Positions 2,446 to 14,315 of a stretch of DNA of 15,291 nucleotides are shown one piece after another (position 1 is the first letter of the stretch; each line of letters opens with the position of its first letter). The notes under the pieces were generated by a model. The model did no database searches, was not told where the DNA came from, and was given only the letters and a program-made list of their open reading frames with translations. Source of the DNA: an archaeon (GTDB taxonomy: Archaea > Iainarchaeota > Iainarchaeia > Iainarchaeales > CSSED10-239). A program made the position numbers and the translations under genes. Location: the NCBI GenBank assembly GCA_041677685.1, contig JBAYPN010000017.1, positions 1-15,291 on the forward strand, in the 5' to 3' direction.

Positions 2446-3597
2446 TCACTTTGAAAAAGGAGACATCTTTGTTAACTTCTCAATAATTATAGGTAAGACC
2501 TCTATTACCTTTTCAATTTCTTTTTTGGTTGTTTCTTTCCCTAAACTTATTCTTATGACCCCATTTGTTTCTTCAGGCTTAACATCAATAGCTTTAATTA
2601 CATGATTTGTTTGTAAGGTATTTGAGGAGCAAGCAGAACCAGTTGAAACCTTAATTCCTAAAAGATCTAAATGTAAAAGAATTGATTCTCCCTCAATATA
2701 ATTAAATCTAAAATTTATATTATTGCACAGTCTATTTTCTTTAGGTCCATTTAATTTAGCAGAAGGAATTTTTTTAAGAACTTTAGAAATTAAATAATCT
2801 CTAAGTTCAGTCATCCTAATAACATCTTCTTTAGTAATCACTTCAGTTGCTTTTGAAAAACCAACAATCCCAGAAACATTTAAAGTTCCACTTCTAAGAT
2901 TATATTCATGCCCCCCACCATGTAGCAAAGGTGTAATTTTAATTCCGTTCTTAACTAATAAAGCTCCAACACCTTTAGGTCCATAGATCTTATGAGCATT
3001 AATTGTAATTAAGGAAATATTATCTTCTTCTAAGTCAATTGGTATCTTTGTAAAACTTTGGCAAGCATCTGTATGGAATAATGTTTCTTTCTCTTTACAG
3101 ATTCTACCAATTTCTTTAATATTTTGAACAGTTCCAATCTCATTATTTGCATGAATTATTGAAACTAGAATTGTGTCTTTTCTAATTTTCTTTTTTAAAG
3201 TTTCTAAGTCAATAAAGCCTTCTTTGTTAACATCTAAGTAAGTAACTTCAAAGCCCTCTTTTTCTAAAAACTTTGCAGTATTTAGTATACAGTCATGCTC
3301 AATTTTACTAACAATTATGTGTTTTCCTTTTTCCTTATAACTATTTGCAATTCCTTTAAGTGCAAGGTTATTACTTTCTGTCCCTCCAGAAGTAAATATT
3401 AATTTGTAATTGTTTGCATTTAGTTTTTTTTTAATGTTTTCTCTTGCATCTTCTACCCTTTCTTTGGCATAGTTGCCTAAAGAGTGTAAGCTTGCAGAAT
3501 TTCCATAGTGATCAGTAAGAAAAGGTTTTATCTCTTTGTAAACATCTTTGTCAAGAGGTGTTGTTGCTGCATAATCTAAATATATAATTTCTGTCAT
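2446..3597 (-). CDS. iscS: cysteine desulfurase (IscS/NifS type, PLP-dependent)
   Basis: The protein starts MTEIIYLDYAATTPLD. Other motifs are TSGGTESNN, the PLP-Lys motif NAHKIYGPKGVGAL, and the active-site loop STGSACSS. I place the start at ATG 3597 (383 aa) rather than the ORF-track start at 3669. ATG 3597 is preceded by GTGAT with a 6-nt spacer and gives the canonical N-terminus. The longer version would overlap the arsR 3' end and has no ribosome-binding site. Confidence 0.9.
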   Translation of the reverse strand: MTEIIYLDYAATTPLDKDVYKEIKPFLTDHYGNSASLHSLGNYAKERVEDARENIKKKLNANNYKLIFTSGGTESNNLALKGIANSYKEKGKHIIVSKIEHDCILNTAKFLEKEGFEVTYLDVNKEGFIDLETLKKKIRKDTILVSIIHANNEIGTVQNIKEIGRICKEKETLFHTDACQSFTKIPIDLEEDNISLITINAHKIYGPKGVGALLVKNGIKITPLLHGGGHEYNLRSGTLNVSGIVGFSKATEVITKEDVIRMTELRDYLISKVLKKIPSAKLNGPKENRLCNNINFRFNYIEGESILLHLDLLGIKVSTGSACSSNTLQTNHVIKAIDVKPEETNGVIRISLGKETTKKEIEKVIEVLPIIIEKLTKMSPFSK

Positions 3598-3604
3598 AAG
3601 ATTA

Positions 3605-3907
3605 TCACTTTTCTGTAATATTACATTTCCCTTTACAAAAGTTAGCTGTATGTTTGTTAACAATTTCAACTAGGGGCTTAATTGTTTCTTTATTTAAAGA
3701 ATATTTAATATATTTGCCTTCCCTTTTTGAAAAAACAATATTACAGTTTGATAATGTTTTAAGATTGTGACTAACTTTTGATTGTTCCTCATCAATATCT
3801 TTACAGATGTCTTGTACAAACTTGTCAGACAAATATAAGGAATTAATGATTTTCCACCTTGTTTTGTTTGAAAGAACATTAAACAAAAAGTATGATTTGC
3901 ATTTCAT
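3605..3907 (-). CDS. ArsR/SmtB-family winged-helix transcriptional regulator, Cys-rich
   Basis: 100 aa. The pattern NVLSNKTRWKIINSL....FVQDICKDIDEEQSKVSHNLKTLSNCNIVFSKREGKYIKYSL is the typical ArsR HTH plus wing. It has five Cys, including a C-terminal FCKGKC. It is the first gene of the isc operon and has no ribosome-binding site, so it is probably leaderless. Confidence 0.8.
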   Translation of the reverse strand: MKCKSYFLFNVLSNKTRWKIINSLYLSDKFVQDICKDIDEEQSKVSHNLKTLSNCNIVFSKREGKYIKYSLNKETIKPLVEIVNKHTANFCKGKCNITEK

Positions 3908-5307: not shown

Positions 5308-5378
5308 GCCAAGATGGCAGATCGGTTATGCCTCCGCCTGCAGAGCGGAAGAGTAGGGTTCGACTCCCTATCTTGGCT
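5308..5378 (+). tRNA. tRNA-Cys (anticodon GCA)
   Basis: Cloverleaf folded by hand. The acceptor stem is GCCAAGA/TCTTGGC. The D stem is GCAG/ATGC with a G-A mismatch, and the D-loop has GG. The anticodon stem is TCCGC/GCGGA with loop CTGCAGA (GCA at 5340-5342). The variable region is 4 nt. The T arm is TAGGG-TTCGACT-CCCTA. The discriminator is U73, the known Cys identity element. CCA is not encoded. A TTTATTAA box lies at 5281-5288. Confidence 0.9.
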
Positions 5379-5380
5379 CA

Positions 5381-5392: not shown

Positions 5393-7531
5393 CTAAATAG
5401 ATAAAAGATTTTTAAGTAGTTCTCTTTCTTTTTTGTAGATAGTTTCTTTTATTTGTAAGTTTTTATAATCTATGATTAAAGAATTTACTTTTAGTTCAAT
5501 TAATTCCTTTATTATTTCTTGAGAGTGATTGTTTACTTTTAAGATTCTTGTGATCTTATTCTCTTTACAGATCTCAAAAGCTCTTTTAAGCTCTAAAGAG
5601 TCTATTTTTTCTAGGTTAAAAATAAGTGAATCAATTCCTCTAGAGATATATTCTTCAATCAAAGTCTCTTTAATTGTTTCAATTGTTACACAAAGATTAT
5701 TATCTGTAACTTCTTTAATTGGGGTTATCTCATCAGAGGACTTTAAATTTTCAAGAACTATATTTATTTTAGGATTATTGATTTCAAGTAATGTTTCTAT
5801 CTCGTAGCTTGAGGTGTTTTTTGAAAGTAGATTGGAATTATGTAAATTAATCTTATAATATATAATTTCTTTATTTAACTTTTCAGAAAATAATTTTAAT
5901 TTACATTTAATCTTGTTTATGAAAATTGAATTGTCTTTTATAATCTCATTAAGCTCTTCTTCTTTAAACAAAGAGTTTACAGTTATTAAAAAACCATCAA
6001 CCTCATTTAAGTTAATATCTTTTAAGTCATCTAGATCTTTTAAATCAATTATAATTTTTGTAATTGTTTCAGGAAATTCTGGTTCCTTTCTTAAAAGTTT
6101 AATTTCTTCTTTTTTATTAAGGTTGTTTTTAGAGTCGTCCCTTATAACTAATTTTACACCTGTTAGCTTGTAGACTATTCCTGCACCCCCATTAAGCTGG
6201 ACACTATCTCCATTCTTTAATAGTTTGGTTGCATAGTCTGTATGAACAACACAAGGGATATCATATTTCTTAGAAATTAAGGCAGCATGGCAAATTGAAC
6301 TACCTGCATCTGTGATAATTCCTTTTGCAATTTTTAGGTAAGGGGTCATTTCTAAGGTTGTCATCTTAGTAACTAGTATGTGATTTTCTGTAATATCTTT
6401 AAGGTCTTCAGGTTTATTTATAACTTTTATAATTCCGTTAACCACTCCCTGGCAGATAGGTATTCCTTCTAAGAGAACTTCTTTTTTATAAGAGTCCATT
6501 TTGTCTTGAAGAGAAGCGTCCTTTTTCTTTTTAATTTTTAATTTTTTTAAATTTGGGTCAAGTGGGTCTGCACTTATTAAATGGATGTCTGCTTTTCCAA
6601 TAACCCAATCAATATAGAGAGGAGTTCCAAAATACAGTTCTAGTTTGTTTCCAATTTCAGTAAGTTCTTTTACATCTCTTAAGTCTAGTTTGTTTTTATC
6701 AAGAGTAGAAGGTTCAAGATTTATTTTTGTTGTTTTTCCTGTCAATCTTCTTATCATCCATTCTTGTTTTGATTTTGTTTTTTTAATAATTGAATAATTT
6801 TTTTTATTAATTTCATAGTGTTCAGGGGTAATCTCTGAAATAAGGCTTTTACCTCCAATACCGTAAATAACTTCTATGACTGTGCTTTTTTTATCTTGCA
6901 TTTCTTTTGTGGTAATTATTATTCCAGACTTACTTGCATTTATCATTTTTTGAATAACTATTGCATATCCAATTTTATTAATTTGTAAATTATTATCTTT
7001 AATATATTCTAGGACTTCTGGAGAATATAAAGATGCCCAGCATCCCTTGACTGACTTGTAGATGTTTTCAATTCCTTTAATATTAATAAATCCACTAAAT
7101 TGTTCTATAAAGTCTAAATCTTTTGGGCTTATCTCTTCGCTTGTTATTGAAAGTCTTATAGAAACAAATTCATCTACTTTGCTATTTAGCCAGCCAACCT
7201 TTTGTTCACCAATTTTTATATATGCTTTTCCAAGTTCTGCCTTAAAGTCATCTGTGAATTGGTTATTTAAAAATATTTTTTTAATCTCAATTGATTTTTT
7301 TTCTAAGTCTTTTTTATTTGTGTAATCTATTGTTTCTAAAAGCAGGTTTATTTTTTCTTTTAGATTATTTGTTTGTAAGAAAGAGAAATAGAATTTGTTA
7401 CCAATAACAAAAGCTCTAGGTATAGGGAAGTTAGCTCTTGAGAGTTCTGCAAGTCTTGCTGCTTTGTAACCTACCTCTTGTATATCATTATCTGTTATTT
7501 CTTTTAACCATTTTATGTTTTTACTGTCCAT
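5393..7531 (-). CDS. PEP synthase / pyruvate phosphate dikinase family protein with a divergent, apparently non-catalytic C-terminal domain
   Basis: The N-terminal PPDK_N/ATP-grasp signature is present (VGYKAARLAEL...FPIPRAFVI). The central swivel phosphohistidine domain reads ILVTKMTTLEMTPYLKIAKGIITDAGSSICHAALISKKYDIPCVV, with His415 at nt 6287-6289. The C-terminal 240 aa or so has an alternating beta/alpha character but lacks the NPMLG, (S/T)NDxTQ and catalytic-Cys motifs. Confidence 0.8.
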   Translation of the reverse strand: MDSKNIKWLKEITDNDIQEVGYKAARLAELSRANFPIPRAFVIGNKFYFSFLQTNNLKEKINLLLETIDYTNKKDLEKKSIEIKKIFLNNQFTDDFKAELGKAYIKIGEQKVGWLNSKVDEFVSIRLSITSEEISPKDLDFIEQFSGFINIKGIENIYKSVKGCWASLYSPEVLEYIKDNNLQINKIGYAIVIQKMINASKSGIIITTKEMQDKKSTVIEVIYGIGGKSLISEITPEHYEINKKNYSIIKKTKSKQEWMIRRLTGKTTKINLEPSTLDKNKLDLRDVKELTEIGNKLELYFGTPLYIDWVIGKADIHLISADPLDPNLKKLKIKKKKDASLQDKMDSYKKEVLLEGIPICQGVVNGIIKVINKPEDLKDITENHILVTKMTTLEMTPYLKIAKGIITDAGSSICHAALISKKYDIPCVVHTDYATKLLKNGDSVQLNGGAGIVYKLTGVKLVIRDDSKNNLNKKEEIKLLRKEPEFPETITKIIIDLKDLDDLKDINLNEVDGFLITVNSLFKEEELNEIIKDNSIFINKIKCKLKLFSEKLNKEIIYYKINLHNSNLLSKNTSSYEIETLLEINNPKINIVLENLKSSDEITPIKEVTDNNLCVTIETIKETLIEEYISRGIDSLIFNLEKIDSLELKRAFEICKENKITRILKVNNHSQEIIKELIELKVNSLIIDYKNLQIKETIYKKERELLKNLLSI

Positions 7532-8920: not shown

Positions 8921-9790
8921 TTATAATTTTCTTCTAAGCTTTAGATCTTTATAATATTCAAATTTTCCAAAGTGTTCACCCATAGGTGTTTTTTTACATT
9001 CCTTTTTATAATCTAAAATTTTTTTTTTTTTTACTTCAAGTGAATCTTTTGACATAATTCCTGGACCACCAATACAGCCACCTTCACAAAAAAGAATATC
9101 TAAAAGTCTAATATTTTTATTTTTCTCCATTTTTTTAATTGCCAAATCAATTCCTTTTATTCCATCAGCAATAACTACTTGTTTCTTTTCTACAATTTCT
9201 TTGTAGTTCATGGTTTTTGCTACAGCTCCTGAAAGTGGATAGATTTTTGTATAATCATTATATAGCTTATTAAAGTCAACAGTCTTTGGGTCTATGTCAA
9301 TTTTTTTAAACAACTTTTTTTCAGCATAATAATCAAAAATTTCTTGTAATTCTTTAAAGGTTATAGCAAAATCGACCTCATGATTTTCAATAGCTTCTTG
9401 TTTTTTAGAAAGGCAAGGTCCAACAAATATCGTCTTATAGCTTGGGTATTCAGCATGTGAATATCTTCCCATGATTATCATTGGAGACGCCACATTAATT
9501 ATCTTAGCTTTATGCTGTGGGTATTTATTTTCTATATACTTAACAACACTTGGGCAATTAGCACAGATAAATTGTTTTTCTGGAAGTCTTTTAAGAATCT
9601 TACTATACCTTATACTTATTAATTTTGCAGCATAAGTGAGTTCTAGGATTTTAGAAAACCCAATTTTTTTAAGATCAATAATTATATCAGGGTATTTAAA
9701 GTCAACAGGAAAGGCAGGTGCTAACAAGCACACAGTCTTTTTAGTATTAATTATTTTTATTATTTTTTTTAAATTGTCTGAAAGTTCCAT
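8921..9790 (-). CDS. [FeFe]-hydrogenase catalytic (H-cluster) domain-only protein, minimal form
   Basis: 289 aa and collinear with the Fe_hyd_lg_C pattern. The matches are LLAPAFPV (APA.R region), LKKIGFSKILELTYAA (lkklGFd.v.d..fgAD), L1-like FICANCPSVVKYIENKYP (canonical ftSCCPgWv.y.Ek.yP), ASPM (SPqq), L2 VGPCLSKKQEA (MPCxxKKxE), VDFAITFKEL (vD.VlT..El) and L3 FCEGGCIGGPG (ACxGGCixGGGqp). The four cluster-ligand Cys positions are present (C79, C126, C235, C239). There is no ferredoxin-like accessory domain. AGGTAAT lies 8 nt upstream of the ATG. Confidence 0.75.
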   Translation of the reverse strand: MELSDNLKKIIKIINTKKTVCLLAPAFPVDFKYPDIIIDLKKIGFSKILELTYAAKLISIRYSKILKRLPEKQFICANCPSVVKYIENKYPQHKAKIINVASPMIIMGRYSHAEYPSYKTIFVGPCLSKKQEAIENHEVDFAITFKELQEIFDYYAEKKLFKKIDIDPKTVDFNKLYNDYTKIYPLSGAVAKTMNYKEIVEKKQVVIADGIKGIDLAIKKMEKNKNIRLLDILFCEGGCIGGPGIMSKDSLEVKKKKILDYKKECKKTPMGEHFGKFEYYKDLKLRRKL

Positions 9791-9835
9791 ACTCTATTAC
9801 CTTTTTTTCTTTTTTTAAATTAATTTTTTTTAACC

Positions 9836-10807
9836 CTAGTCTTTTATAAAATTTTTATATTTACTATTTTTATTTTTTAATAGAACAATTCTTGAAGCAA
9901 CTTGTTCATCAATAATTTTAAACTTAGAGGACTTCTTTTCAATCTCTTTTGCAAAGTTAGAAACTTCTTCATGGTTTGGCATGTTTTCAAATTTCAAATT
10001 TTCTCTAGAATATCCTAAAAACATGTACGATTTAATTTCTAAAAAATCAGAATCTGTTTTTTCAAACAATTTAACATATTCATCTAAATACTCTAAAGAA
10101 TCATTAATTCCTTTAATCATTGTAAATCTTAATACTCTTCTACAATTTAATTTTGGAAACAATTCTAAAGTTTTATTAAAAATTTCCCAACTATTCTTTA
10201 TTTTTGGTCTATTAATTTTAAAATGTAAATCTTTATTAGGTGCTTCAATTGAAAGATAAAGTTGTGTTGGTAAACAATTATTATTGTTTAGTTCTTCTAA
10301 TCTTTTAGGCTCTAAACCATTTGTTACGATAAATATACTTTTTATTTCTTTTTTAGATTTTAAGTAAGAAACCATTTCTCCAATCTTAGGATAGATTGTA
10401 GGTTCTCCAGCAAGAGAGATAGCAACATGAGAAGGTGTTAAGCTTTCTTCTAGTAGTTTAGAATTAACCTTTTGGTTTCCTCCAAAGCCACTTAATAGTT
10501 TTTGTCTTTTTATAAATAGACCTTCAATAATATCTTTAGGGTCATCAATTCTTTCACCCATTTCCCAAGCAGGCATATAGTTTGCTGGTCTCCAGCAGAA
10601 ACTACAATTTTGATGACACCATAAGACTGTAGGTGTTATCTGAGCACACCTATGACAATCAACATTATAAAATTTTTGTTTATAACAAACACCTTCTCCT
10701 CTTAGAGCCTTTTTGTTCCATTCGCAAATCTCTACTGCTGAATGTTCTCCAAAAATCCTATAGTGTTTATGTTCCAAATCTTTAAAGATTTCTTTTTTAT
10801 TTTCCAT
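9836..10807 (-). CDS. taw1: tRNA 4-demethylwyosine synthase Taw1/TYW1 (radical SAM)
   Basis: The protein matches archaeal Taw1 (for example the M. jannaschii enzyme as I remember it) from end to end. The matches are HSAVEICEW, CYKQKFYNVDCHRCAQITPTVLWCHQNCSFCWR (CxxxCxxC), HVAISLAGEPTIYP, PTQLYLSIEAP, LEIKSYMFLGYSR and SRIVLLKNKN. There is no ribosome-binding site. A TATA-like TTTATTTAAT on the minus strand (plus-strand 10831-10840) is centred about 28 nt upstream of the ATG, so the transcript is probably leaderless. Confidence 0.9.
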   Translation of the reverse strand: MENKKEIFKDLEHKHYRIFGEHSAVEICEWNKKALRGEGVCYKQKFYNVDCHRCAQITPTVLWCHQNCSFCWRPANYMPAWEMGERIDDPKDIIEGLFIKRQKLLSGFGGNQKVNSKLLEESLTPSHVAISLAGEPTIYPKIGEMVSYLKSKKEIKSIFIVTNGLEPKRLEELNNNNCLPTQLYLSIEAPNKDLHFKINRPKIKNSWEIFNKTLELFPKLNCRRVLRFTMIKGINDSLEYLDEYVKLFEKTDSDFLEIKSYMFLGYSRENLKFENMPNHEEVSNFAKEIEKKSSKFKIIDEQVASRIVLLKNKNSKYKNFIKD

Positions 10808-12508: not shown

Positions 12509-12581
12509 GGGTCCGTGGCCTAGTGGATAGGGCAACAGCCTTCTAAGCTGTGGGTCGAGGGTTCGAATCCCTCCGGACTCG
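12509..12581 (+). tRNA. tRNA-Arg (anticodon UCU)
   Basis: 73-nt cloverleaf folded by hand. The acceptor stem is GGGTCCG/CGGACTC with one G-U pair. The D arm is GCCT-AGTGGATA-GGGC. The anticodon stem is ACAGC/GCTGT with loop CTTCTAA (TCT at 12542-12544). The variable region is GGGTC. The T arm is GAGGG-TTCGAAT-CCCTC. The discriminator is G. CCA is not encoded. Confidence 0.95.
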
Positions 12582-12582
12582 C

Positions 12583-12611: not shown

Positions 12612-14315
12612 ATGGAATATAAAAGAGAAATATCTAAAATAATATTTGATTATTTTTCAAATAAAGAAATTACTGAAGAAAAAATCTATAAGTCTTTAGA
12701 AGTTCCACCTAACCAAGATCTTGGTAACTACTCTTTACCTTGCTTTTTCTTATCTAAGTTGCTTAAAAAATCTCCGGTGGTTATTGCAAAAGATCTAGCT
12801 GGTAGTTTAAGGTCTAAGGATTTTGAATTTTTTGAAGTTAATGGTTATCTAAACATAAAGATTAATTCTTTTTTATTATTTAAAAACACCATTTCAGATA
12901 TTTTAAACTTAAAAGAAAACTTTACAAAAAGAAATATTGATTCTAGGACATATGTGATTGACACCTTTAATCCAAATCCTCTAAAAACATTACATGTTGG
13001 ACACATAAGAAACGCAGTTACTGGCCAAGTAGTTTACAATCTCTTAAAAGAAATTGGTGCAAACCCAAAAGCTGTAACTTATAATGGAGATGTTGGAACT
13101 CATGTTTCTAAGTGGTTATGGTATTATTATAAATTTTTAGAAAAAAATAAAAAAGAGATTCCAAAAAGTTATGTAAGCAAATGGTTTGGTGAAATCTATA
13201 TTTCTGCAGGAAACAAGGTTGCTGAAAATCCTGACATCTACAAAAAAGAAATTGATGATTTGCAAGTTAAGCTGATGACAGATGAAAGTTTACAAAAAGA
13301 TCTAAAAAAATTTGTGACTGCAAGCTTTAATAGTTTTTTAGAGGTTGGAAAAGAACTAGGGATAACTGTTGACCACACGATTTTTGAAAGTCAAGCTGAA
13401 AAGAAGTTTTTAGAAATAAAGACAGACCTTTTTAAAAAATACAAAGACATTTTTGTAGAGGACGACGGAGCTATTGTTGCTGATCTTGGTTCAAAGGAAC
13501 TTGGAAACTTTATTTTAATCAAAGGTAATGGTGCTCTTCTCTATGGTGCAAAAGACATAGGCTTAATTAATTTAAAGAAAGAAAAATATCCTGACTGTAA
13601 TGATTTTTTATATGTTGTTGCCTGTGAGCAAGATTTTTATTTAAAACAGTTATTTAGATTATTTAAATTTATCTACCCTAACTTCAATAATCTACACATA
13701 AGTCATGGACTAATAAACACCCCAGAAGGAAAAATGAAATCAAGAGAAGGTGGAATGACTTTATATGAGGACTTTAGAGATGAAGTTTTTACAAAAGTTA
13801 ATAAAGTATTAACGGAGAATGGATTAGATTCAGATCAATCAACTCTAAAAAAAATATCCTTTGGAACAATAATTTTTGAGATGTTAAAAATAAATACTTC
13901 TAAAAATCTAGTCTTTGATCTAGATGTTGCAACAGACTTAGCAGGAGACTCTTGCTCTTATGTTCAATATACAGGTGTTAGAGCAAAGGGTATTTTAGAA
14001 AAAGCAAACCTAAGTAATATTAGCCTAAAAGATCTTTCTAAAGCTACTTTAGAAAATGAAGAGCTATTGTTAATAAACAAGTTTCAAGAGTTACAAGAAA
14101 AAATAGAATATTCAGCAAGAAACTATAAACCGCACATTATTGCAAACTATGCACTTGAGCTTGCACATCTGTTTAATAAATTTTACACCACTTGTCAAGT
14201 CTTGGTTGAAGATGAGGCTATTAAAAAAAATAGAGTTTTAATTATCAAAGCATATATTATAGTTTTAACAAAAACCCTTTCAATTTTAGGGATTGAAATG
14301 CCTGAAAAGATGTGA
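12612..14315 (+). CDS. argS: arginyl-tRNA synthetase
   Basis: The N-terminal additional domain is present (DLGNYSLPCFFLSKLLKKSPVVIAKDL). The HIGH motif reads NPNPLKTLHVGHIRNAVTG. The KMSKS-equivalent reads GKMKSREGG. The DALR anticodon-binding domain is present (YVQYTGVRAKGILEK, PHIIANYALELAHLFNKFY). The C-terminal residue is the characteristic Met (...PEKM). Confidence 0.95.
   Translation: MEYKREISKIIFDYFSNKEITEEKIYKSLEVPPNQDLGNYSLPCFFLSKLLKKSPVVIAKDLAGSLRSKDFEFFEVNGYLNIKINSFLLFKNTISDILNLKENFTKRNIDSRTYVIDTFNPNPLKTLHVGHIRNAVTGQVVYNLLKEIGANPKAVTYNGDVGTHVSKWLWYYYKFLEKNKKEIPKSYVSKWFGEIYISAGNKVAENPDIYKKEIDDLQVKLMTDESLQKDLKKFVTASFNSFLEVGKELGITVDHTIFESQAEKKFLEIKTDLFKKYKDIFVEDDGAIVADLGSKELGNFILIKGNGALLYGAKDIGLINLKKEKYPDCNDFLYVVACEQDFYLKQLFRLFKFIYPNFNNLHISHGLINTPEGKMKSREGGMTLYEDFRDEVFTKVNKVLTENGLDSDQSTLKKISFGTIIFEMLKINTSKNLVFDLDVATDLAGDSCSYVQYTGVRAKGILEKANLSNISLKDLSKATLENEELLLINKFQELQEKIEYSARNYKPHIIANYALELAHLFNKFYTTCQVLVEDEAIKKNRVLIIKAYIIVLTKTLSILGIEMPEKM

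Follow-up and report, generated by a model that had tools for sequence, protein, structure and literature searches.

A probable orthologue of the group E ultraminimal [FeFe] hydrogenases in an archaeon, encoded next to the radical-SAM gene TYW1

A 15,291-nucleotide stretch of DNA from an archaeon placed in the Iainarchaeales (NCBI GenBank assembly GCA_041677685.1, contig JBAYPN010000017.1; referred to here as the window) carries on its minus strand, at 8921..9790, a gene for a 289-residue protein that consists of the catalytic domain (H-domain) of [FeFe] hydrogenases alone. Very probably this protein is orthologous to the group E 'ultraminimal' [FeFe] hydrogenases described from DPANN archaea by Greening et al. 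(Cell 2024; PMC11216029), whose mean length is 286 residues. As such it is one more orthologue in a family whose description and biochemical validation date from 2024, and it will not surprise a specialist. While the group E kind of enzyme is already known, what is new is that, in archaea and in ultra-small bacteria alike, its gene lies next to genes for radical S-adenosylmethionine (SAM) enzymes.

The gene is a genuine homologue of the [FeFe]-hydrogenase H-domain, with a similarity far beyond chance. The Pfam model PF02906 (Fe_hyd_lg_C) matches residues 17-243 with E=1e-37 and 130.5 bits and is covered in full (profile positions 1-245 of 245), in agreement with the collinearity with the catalytic domain that a preliminary description of this DNA, made from the letters alone, had proposed. 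No second Pfam domain (accessory Fe-S, signaling, Fer4 or PF04060) was matched in the protein, and with 289 residues against the 457 of CrHydA1, the smallest enzyme characterized before group E, it has the shortened segments and the missing F-cluster domain that were also part of that description. A homologue search of 5.8 billion proteins returned 294 relatives, nearly all of them 283-299 residues long with PF02906 as their only domain; given this number and the E value, a chance open reading frame (ORF) was rejected, as was a plus-strand reading of 8921-9790, which holds only stops. The gene begins with ATG and specifies a protein of 33.4 kDa with a pI of 9.5. Sequence searches of the PDB, made either with the single protein or with a 77-sequence family profile, matched [FeFe] hydrogenases only, with profile E values down to 1.6e-20. 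Structure prediction, which the preliminary description had named as a way of checking its claim, points in the same direction: the AlphaFold2 model built from the family alignment is confident (mean predicted local distance difference test score, pLDDT, 91.0; predicted template modeling score, pTM, 0.89), and the best 50 Foldseek matches listed against the PDB are all [FeFe] hydrogenases (TM-scores of 0.69-0.77 normalized to the query), among them CbA5H, CpI, the HydA subunit of HydABC and HydA2 of the hydrogen-dependent CO2 reductase. An identical protein is already in GenBank as '[Fe-Fe] hydrogenase large subunit C-terminal domain-containing protein [archaeon]', and the contig that carries it is also present in assemblies GCA_028708135.1 and GCA_028702685.1.

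Neither of the two NCBIfam models that bear on its classification accommodates the protein. The best match is to TIGR04105 (monomeric, group B), with 135.7 bits against a cut-off of 450 and over model positions 212-461 only, a segment that corresponds to the H-domain part of that model; the group A model TIGR02512 scores 54.3 bits against a cut-off of 405.95. Membership in group A or group B was rejected because both the model cut-offs and the motifs failed. With the group A enzymes CpI and CrHydA1 the protein shares the fold (TM-scores of 0.72-0.77 on the query), the four Cys ligands and the CN-binding pocket, but identity is only about 19%, the F-domain is missing, the loops are shortened and the Cys of TSCCP is absent together with the E279/S319/E282/R286 relay. 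The order of the groups in our searches provides a further hint, in that sensory-type proteins rank next in the profile search and the group A model scores below the group B model; the published placement of group E is beside group C (PMC11216029).

The biochemically characterized member of group E, Fm, was purified from Candidatus Forterrea multitransposorum as a 33-kDa protein with 4.2 Fe per protein; after loading with synthetic [2Fe]adt (adt, azadithiolate) it gave the Fourier-transform infrared states of an H-cluster in a well-defined environment, and its catalysis is bidirectional with a bias to proton reduction and H2 evolution, activity in the family otherwise coming from lysate assays (PMC11216029). 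The window protein is 54% identical over 288 residues (E=5e-117) to P0027, a protein of 286 residues and 33.46 kDa with the motif ICGNCP that many samples contain, its contigs reaching a length of 839,632 bp. Judging by the size of the protein, the size of the genome (about 840 kb for Forterrea, where 42 kb is 5%, from a Crystal Geyser time series; PMC5905446) and the sampling, P0027 is very probably Fm. Synteny between the two loci extends for some 15 kb, with genes for arginyl-tRNA synthetase, a thioredoxin-like protein, TYW1 and the hydrogenase followed, further along, by those for RadA, a protein like pyruvate phosphate dikinase (PPDK) and an Mre11-like protein. Membership among the very small DPANN-type hydrogenases, which the preliminary description could not verify, is thus supported by sequence identity as well as gene order. 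The window protein and Fm resemble one another in (i) consisting of the H-domain only, with 289 and 286 residues, (ii) having the motifs C-x-N-C-P, G-P-C-x-x-K-K-x-E and C-x-G-G-C in common and (iii) coming from the same gene neighborhood in an archaeal host, in the case of the window a probable DPANN archaeon. They differ in that the window protein has Ala rather than Ser at the position equivalent to S232 and a relay helix without an acidic residue, in that the NifU-SufDBC block abutting the Forterrea gene is missing from the window locus and in that the window enzyme is known from sequence alone.

Residues were matched to CpI numbering by HMMER alignments to CpI and TmHydA, and all of the motifs given here lie on the minus strand. 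The protein has Cys at residues 21, 76, 79, 126, 235, 239 and 265. The L1 motif CANCP (residues 76-80, 9551..9565) contains C79, equivalent to the cubane ligand C300; the L2 motif GPCLSKKQE (residues 124-132, 9395..9421) contains C126, equivalent to the cubane ligand C355; and the L3 motif LFCEGGC (residues 233-239, 9074..9094) contains C235, equivalent to the cubane ligand C499, and C239, equivalent to C503, the ligand that bridges to the [2Fe] subsite. These are exactly the four H-cluster cysteines and the motifs that had been picked out by eye. A24-P25-A26 (9713..9721) corresponds to the CpI loop A230-P231-S232, which hydrogen-bonds a CN ligand of the [2Fe] subsite, and S102-P103-M104 (9479..9487) to S323-P324-Q325 in the loop around the distal CN ligand. 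In L2, the Lys-Lys-x-Glu noted earlier is in place, K129 being equivalent to the distal CN binder K358 and E132 to E361. On this alignment all four predicted cluster ligands and the residues expected to hold the CN ligands are retained.

The canonical proton path (C299, E279, S319, E282, R286), on the other hand, is by the same alignment absent in its entirety. Within L1, C76, A77, N78 and P80 take the places of T297, S298, C299 and P301, so that the position of the proton-relay Cys is occupied by Asn78, and I98 occupies that of S319. The helix that precedes L1 (TYAAKLISIRYSKILKRL) contains no Asp or Glu; E279 falls in an alignment insert, E282 is matched by K64 and R286 is without a counterpart. 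Outside the proton path, G124 stands at M353, the Met of MPC. Asn78, Gly124 and the acid-free helix had all been recognized in the preliminary description, whereas its 'Leu or Phe' for the Met before the L3 Cys can be narrowed to Leu233, the equivalent of M497; Phe234 is the next residue and is equivalent to A498.

To place these features in the family, relatives were drawn from the 294 homologues, from 80 loci recovered in a metagenome scan with an alignment and from loci found by exact look-up (a scan of a genome collection with the single protein gave 5 loci only, its patterns being too specific); they came to 75 distinct full-length proteins, which were sorted by context and genetic code. 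Sixty-six of these, at 47-100% identity, form a core clade that is divided evenly between archaea (33) and bacteria (33), and the remaining nine, at 34-43% identity, form a distant clade. The four Cys and the equivalents of A230, P231, S323, P324, K358 and E361 are invariant in 75/75, the position of M104 (Q325) is Met in 74/75 and that of S232 is Ser in 73/75 relatives, the window protein having Ala here as in the algal APA motif. Position 299 is Asn throughout the core clade (66/66) and Pro, Thr or Val in the distant clade; position 297 is Cys in 65/66 core members, with a single Ala, and Ala, Ser or Thr in the distant clade. Apart from that one Ala, C-x-N-C-P does not vary within the core clade. 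N78 and C76 co-vary, being lost together in the distant clade. Position 353 is Gly in all 66 core members and mostly Ser in the distant clade, and position 497 is Leu in 63/66 and 8/9, respectively. An exhaustive representative search added no fewer than 24 other H-domain-only clusters (255-320 residues); Cys does not occur at their position 299, which is taken by A, V, P, N, T, S, H or D. The motif deviations are thus clade traits, a signature of this clade and of the sensory-related branch, and not a peculiarity of the window gene. As the Asn-for-Cys exchange is invariant in a clade that includes an enzyme active in vitro, it provides no argument against hydrogenase chemistry. The relay helix is a different case: the E282-equivalent is acidic (E or D) in 17/33 archaeal members, and by this comparison the acid-free helix is specific to the window protein rather than family-wide.

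A plausible scenario for the working of the enzyme is that the single 289-residue polypeptide folds as an H-domain alone. By homology, C79, C126, C235 and C239 would hold the [4Fe-4S] part of the H-cluster, with C239 bridging to the di-iron subsite, and A24-P25, S102-P103, K129 and E132 would form the pocket for the CN/CO-ligated [2Fe] unit. The H-cluster would lie near the surface and exchange electrons directly with an external partner, a ferredoxin in the published view; because there are no accessory Fe-S clusters, electrons would have to come from such a partner without an intermediary. Since the canonical Cys-Glu-Ser-Glu-Arg relay is absent, protons would need a non-canonical route. Asn78 and Cys76, the latter two residues earlier and on the same side of the strand, may stand next to the bridgehead amine, and this pair is the best candidate that the alignment offers for the start of an alternative route. 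An Asn at the proton-relay position with a Cys at -2 is a defined active-site variant that can be addressed by mutagenesis, in a clade with an active enzyme. Differing proton-transfer residues are a published property of group E, as is the absence of HydEFG even from the closed Forterrea genome; maturases are absent from most archaeal genomes with group E genes, and an alternative pathway was deemed likely (PMC11216029). We infer that the window protein behaves like Fm and is matured in vivo without HydEFG. Residues whose only contact is the [2Fe] unit are invariant across two domains of life, an argument for the presence of the subsite in vivo even though no known maturase is there.

There are several points that weigh against our assignment of the gene to the group E hydrogenases and against the function that it implies: (i) no HydE, HydF or HydG gene was found in the 15-kb window or in the 16.5-kb loci L008-L011 and, as the closed Forterrea genome has none either, the [2Fe] subsite is unproven in vivo; (ii) activity in the family has been shown only after artificial maturation (PMC11216029); (iii) the canonical proton path is wholly missing, and in the window protein even the relay helix is acid-free; (iv) in prototypical enzymes, replacement of C299 by anything but Asp nearly abolishes activity (PMC10055695); (v) no gene for a ferredoxin or a 2-oxoacid:ferredoxin oxidoreductase, as a fermentative model would predict, was found in the gene neighborhood; (vi) the identification of P0027 with Fm goes by protein size, genome length and sampling and does not come from an accession; and (vii) the four Cys were assigned as ligands from the alignment and not from model coordinates.

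The first two of these points bear on the possibility that the protein carries only a [4Fe-4S] cluster in vivo, as a ferredoxin-like or Nar1-like Fe-S carrier, and that hydrogenase activity is an artefact of artificial maturation. There is precedent in the Nar1/NARFL proteins, H-domain proteins that work without HydEFG and are tied to Fe-S protein biogenesis; Nar1, which is eukaryotic, assists Fe-S assembly without a [2Fe] unit. Fe-S genes also occur near the hydrogenase gene in the window and in related loci. The window encodes, all on the minus strand, NifS (2446-3669) and NifU/IscU (1176-1628), both identified by Pfam, with a 268-residue ORF without a Pfam match (1636-2442) between them, and in Forterrea-type loci (L006, 8865-12383) a NifU-SufD-SufB-SufC set on the opposite strand abuts the hydrogenase stop codon. 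The closed genome of a relative does lack the maturases (PMC11216029). We nevertheless regard this possibility as improbable. The equivalents of K358, E361, A230-P231 and S323-P324, invariant in all 75 proteins, would be hard to explain without the subsite, and Fm takes up [2Fe]adt into a well-defined environment (PMC11216029). In addition, the NifU/Suf adjacency is confined to one sub-lineage, and the N-terminal Cys cluster of the Nar1 type is absent, C21 being the sole Cys N-terminal to the L1 motif. Nar1/NARFL proteins, which are larger and eukaryotic and have that extra cluster, were set apart from the window protein, with its strictly kept [2Fe]-pocket residues, without an alignment to reference sequences.

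A second possibility is suggested by the relatives that follow the H-domain-only clusters in our searches. These are multidomain sensory-type proteins with Fer4, H-domain and PF04060, most of which also carry HisKA/HATPase, MCP, sigma-54 activator or PAS modules, and by profile search the sensory groups C and D are the nearest multidomain relatives of the window protein. C299, M353 and M497 are the very positions that are altered in groups C and D, where 353 is Gly in about half of the enzymes and 299 is mostly Ala (PMC10055695; PMC10407848); the window protein has all three replaced, with Gly353 as in TmHydS, and has likewise lost the canonical proton path. It could then be a stand-alone H2 sensor that descends from group C/D, has lost its output domains and acts through a separate signaling partner. 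This strikes us as very improbable. Whereas group C/D proteins carry N-terminal [4Fe-4S] domains and a C-terminal cluster, to which group C adds a PAS/signaling module, the window protein has no signaling domain, PF04060 or N-terminal Fer4, and no regulator gene is conserved alongside it. The invariant Asn with Cys at -2 is found in its clade in place of the Ala that is usual in groups C and D, and the H2 evolution of Fm is substantial, with a bias opposite to that of TmHydS, which favors H2 oxidation (PMC11216029). The preliminary description had left the choice between a minimal H2-cycling enzyme and an H-domain-derived Fe-S or sensor protein; the former is supported by our findings, and conservation of the [2Fe] pocket disfavors the latter.

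With regard to the physiological context of the hydrogenase, its gene neighborhood is informative. Directly upstream, at 9836..10807 on the minus strand, lies the gene for the radical-SAM enzyme TYW1 (4-demethylwyosine synthase), which bears an auxiliary [4Fe-4S] cluster, exceeds the TIGR03972 equivalog cut-off (367 bits against 318) and contains PF04055 and PF08608; given this equivalog match, a HydE or HydG identity for this neighbor was rejected. The TYW1 stop and the hydrogenase ATG are separated by an A-rich spacer of 45 bp (9791..9835, minus strand) with an AGGT element resembling a Shine-Dalgarno sequence 9 nt upstream of the ATG. A terminator scan found no terminator-like hairpin in this spacer, scans for sigma-70 promoters and terminators being uninformative in AT-rich archaeal DNA; we infer that the two genes are co-transcribed. 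Among 31 distinct archaeal loci in which the upstream flank extends for 1 kb or more, all 31 have TYW1 directly upstream and co-directional, with a gap of no more than 52 bp in 25 of them (the archaeal TYW1-hydrogenase loci are the window, L002, L006-L011, L013-L017, L019-L045 and others). The gap is 0 bp in L016, and in L017 the genes overlap by 4 bp, even though the rest of the upstream flank differs. In six loci the spacer is longer (291-776 bp), and in three of these it holds an inserted ORF of about 255 residues; these three (L035, L036 and L065) belong to one archaeal sub-lineage, and the ORF (MPLKKPLERRIFT...) is co-directional with TYW1 and the hydrogenase gene. The TYW1-hydrogenase junction is the best kept of the neighborhood (24/30), as compared with 8/29 for the hydrogenase-RadA junction. 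In the literature searched we found no report of a link between TYW1 and a hydrogenase, and likewise none on proton transfer in group E beyond the papers cited here.

The clade is not specific to archaea. About half of the close relatives, at 47-57% identity, are from bacteria of the candidate phyla radiation (CPR) that use genetic code 25 (SR1/Absconditabacteria), including the complete genome CP006913 (L012, CP006913.1, SR1 RAAC1), and the five CPR genes in which they were counted have 5-11 in-frame TGA codons each. Our search of the literature on [FeFe] hydrogenases in Absconditabacteria, SR1 and Gracilibacteria found no report of this occurrence. TYW1 is replaced here by other radical-SAM genes. 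In 21 distinct CPR loci with both flanks (from L012, L015, L018, L022, L046-L084 and others), a methylthiotransferase of the MiaB/RimO family, closest to RimO (TIGR00089, 280 bits against a cut-off of 251), is directly adjacent on one side or the other in 12, and a HemW-like radical-SAM gene is directly downstream in 10; at least one of the two is adjacent in 16, and within 1-3 kb in four of the other five. The gene, which would have moved between domains, is thus found beside a different radical-SAM gene in each. In a neighbor-joining tree the archaeal sequences are nested, at weak support, within a paraphyletic set of CPR sequences. With half of the diversity of the clade in code-25 CPR bacteria, its distribution bears on the origin of group E.

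These findings make a functional tie to radical-SAM enzymes, either as reductant or in maturation, a serious hypothesis, and as physiological context the conserved pairing with TYW1 suggests radical-SAM chemistry no less strongly than fermentation. One form that the tie might take is that the mini-hydrogenase is a dedicated redox partner, which would pass a low-potential electron to the SAM [4Fe-4S] cluster of TYW1 in archaea and to that of the RimO/MiaB-type methylthiotransferase and the HemW-like enzyme in CPR bacteria, the electron coming from H2 or the protein acting as a one-cluster carrier. This is compatible with the family assignment, while shifting the role from fermentative H2 release to radical-SAM activation. 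We treat it as a possibility, and a doubtful one. For it speak the presence of TYW1 in 31/31 archaeal loci, the exceptional retention of that junction and the adjacent radical-SAM gene in 16/21 CPR loci. Furthermore, archaeal TYW1 is without the flavodoxin domain that reduces eukaryotic TYW1, and radical-SAM enzymes have a known cognate reductant in just two systems (PMC8941971); TYW1, MiaB and RimO also fall into one small class with an open-site auxiliary [4Fe-4S] cluster (PMC5352715). The flavodoxin domain of eukaryotic TYW1 is a dedicated reductant tied to TYW1 (Young and Bandarian 2021, PMC8941971) but serves as an analogy only, as it has FMN, an unrelated fold and a fusion where the hydrogenase, whose role here is conjectural, has an H-cluster and gene adjacency. 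On the other side, the pairing was noticed post hoc and occurs in only two or three independent lineages, gene order is conserved broadly within lineages and small genomes pack unrelated genes co-directionally. There is no radical-SAM fusion among the best 150 representatives, the longer matches being of the sensory type, and the distant ultraminimal clades are without a radical-SAM neighbor. H2 at environmental pressure is, in addition, a marginal reductant for radical-SAM clusters. Finally, Fm is biased to proton reduction in vitro (PMC11216029).

Alternatively, the radical-SAM neighbors may be surrogate maturases that build the CO/CN/azadithiolate di-iron subsite without HydEFG. HydE and HydG likewise belong to the radical-SAM enzymes and bear auxiliary clusters; a SAM cluster is present in every one of the neighbors, and TYW1 and the methylthiotransferase contain an auxiliary cluster with an open site as well. 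The synteny with TYW1, methylthiotransferase and HemW-like genes would fit, and strict conservation of the [2Fe] pocket implies that some maturation route should exist; most archaeal genomes with group E genes lack maturases, and an alternative pathway is thought likely (PMC11216029). Even so, we would give this explanation little credence, because (i) the archaeal neighbor is a true TYW1 equivalog by its 367 bits against 318 and the CPR neighbor lies above the cut-off of the MiaB/RimO subfamily, so that both look like housekeeping copies, (ii) there is no HydF-like GTPase scaffold nearby and (iii) different radical-SAM families would have had to be recruited in each domain.

Taken at its broadest, the tie would mean that the C-x-N-C-P clade serves not as a fermentative H2 valve but as a partner dedicated to the radical-SAM enzymes of symbionts with reduced genomes, archaeal and bacterial alike, an idea that we hold tentatively and think less probable than its negation. 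In DPANN archaea the gene would form a pair with TYW1, in many cases with coupled translation, and in code-25 CPR bacteria it would be encoded with methylthiotransferase and HemW-like genes; either the hydrogenase would supply electrons to the SAM cluster or its neighbors would replace the maturases HydE and HydG. In the former case, radical-SAM enzymes would have their first reductant of the hydrogenase type. That archaea and CPR bacteria share the clade almost equally would also point to recent inter-domain transfer of the gene. The near-universal adjacency opens a way to test what reduces radical-SAM enzymes that have no flavodoxin-type partner, and it bears on how an [FeFe] hydrogenase may be matured without HydEFG; it is because these two questions become experimentally approachable that the cross-domain distribution and the pairing raise the interest of the gene.

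As to the remainder of the window, its GC content is 22-36% and the host is clearly archaeal, given the RadA/Rad51 gene, the TYW1 equivalog and the NCBI label; an Mre11-like gene is also encoded. One relative of the hydrogenase, at 59% identity, bears a truncated organism label that appears to read Iainarchaeum. The PPDK-like protein (712 residues, 5393-7531, minus strand) has a PPDK_N domain (residues 18-325) and a mobile domain of phosphoenolpyruvate (PEP)-utilizing enzymes (residues 381-451), both at Pfam E<=0.01, and its gene adjoins RadA in all related archaeal loci; no Pfam family is matched by its last 260 or so residues, which distinguishes it from a standard PEP synthase or PPDK. Two tRNA genes lie on the plus strand: tRNA-Cys(GCA) at 5308-5379, between the PPDK-like and Mre11-like genes, and tRNA-Arg(TCT) at 12509-12582, which precedes the gene for arginyl-tRNA synthetase (12612-14315) by about 30 bp.

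The distant ultraminimal clade (34-43% identity), in which no radical-SAM neighbors were found, has associations of its own. Directly upstream of its H-domain-only genes, on contigs from an archaeon and of the Parcubacteria type, is a gene for a conserved multi-pass membrane protein of about 180 residues without a Pfam or NCBIfam match (L003, 7424-7969; L004, 1923-2462; L086, 4920-5489; L096, 5475-5999). In locus L085 (Ga0209417_1017558, 63-2879), an H-domain-only gene for 291 residues (38% identity) lies between PF01058 and PF00374 genes, so that [NiFe] small-subunit, H-domain and large-subunit genes abut or overlap on one strand in what looks like an unfused 'hybrid' arrangement. At the other extreme of size, the representative library contains a predicted protein of 4122 residues (P0136) whose tandem group-A-like H-domains number seven or more, six of which recur with a period of 444 residues; its first copy reads FTSCCA instead of TSCCP, and the protein, which looks algal, may be a polyprotein or an artefact of the assembly or the gene model.

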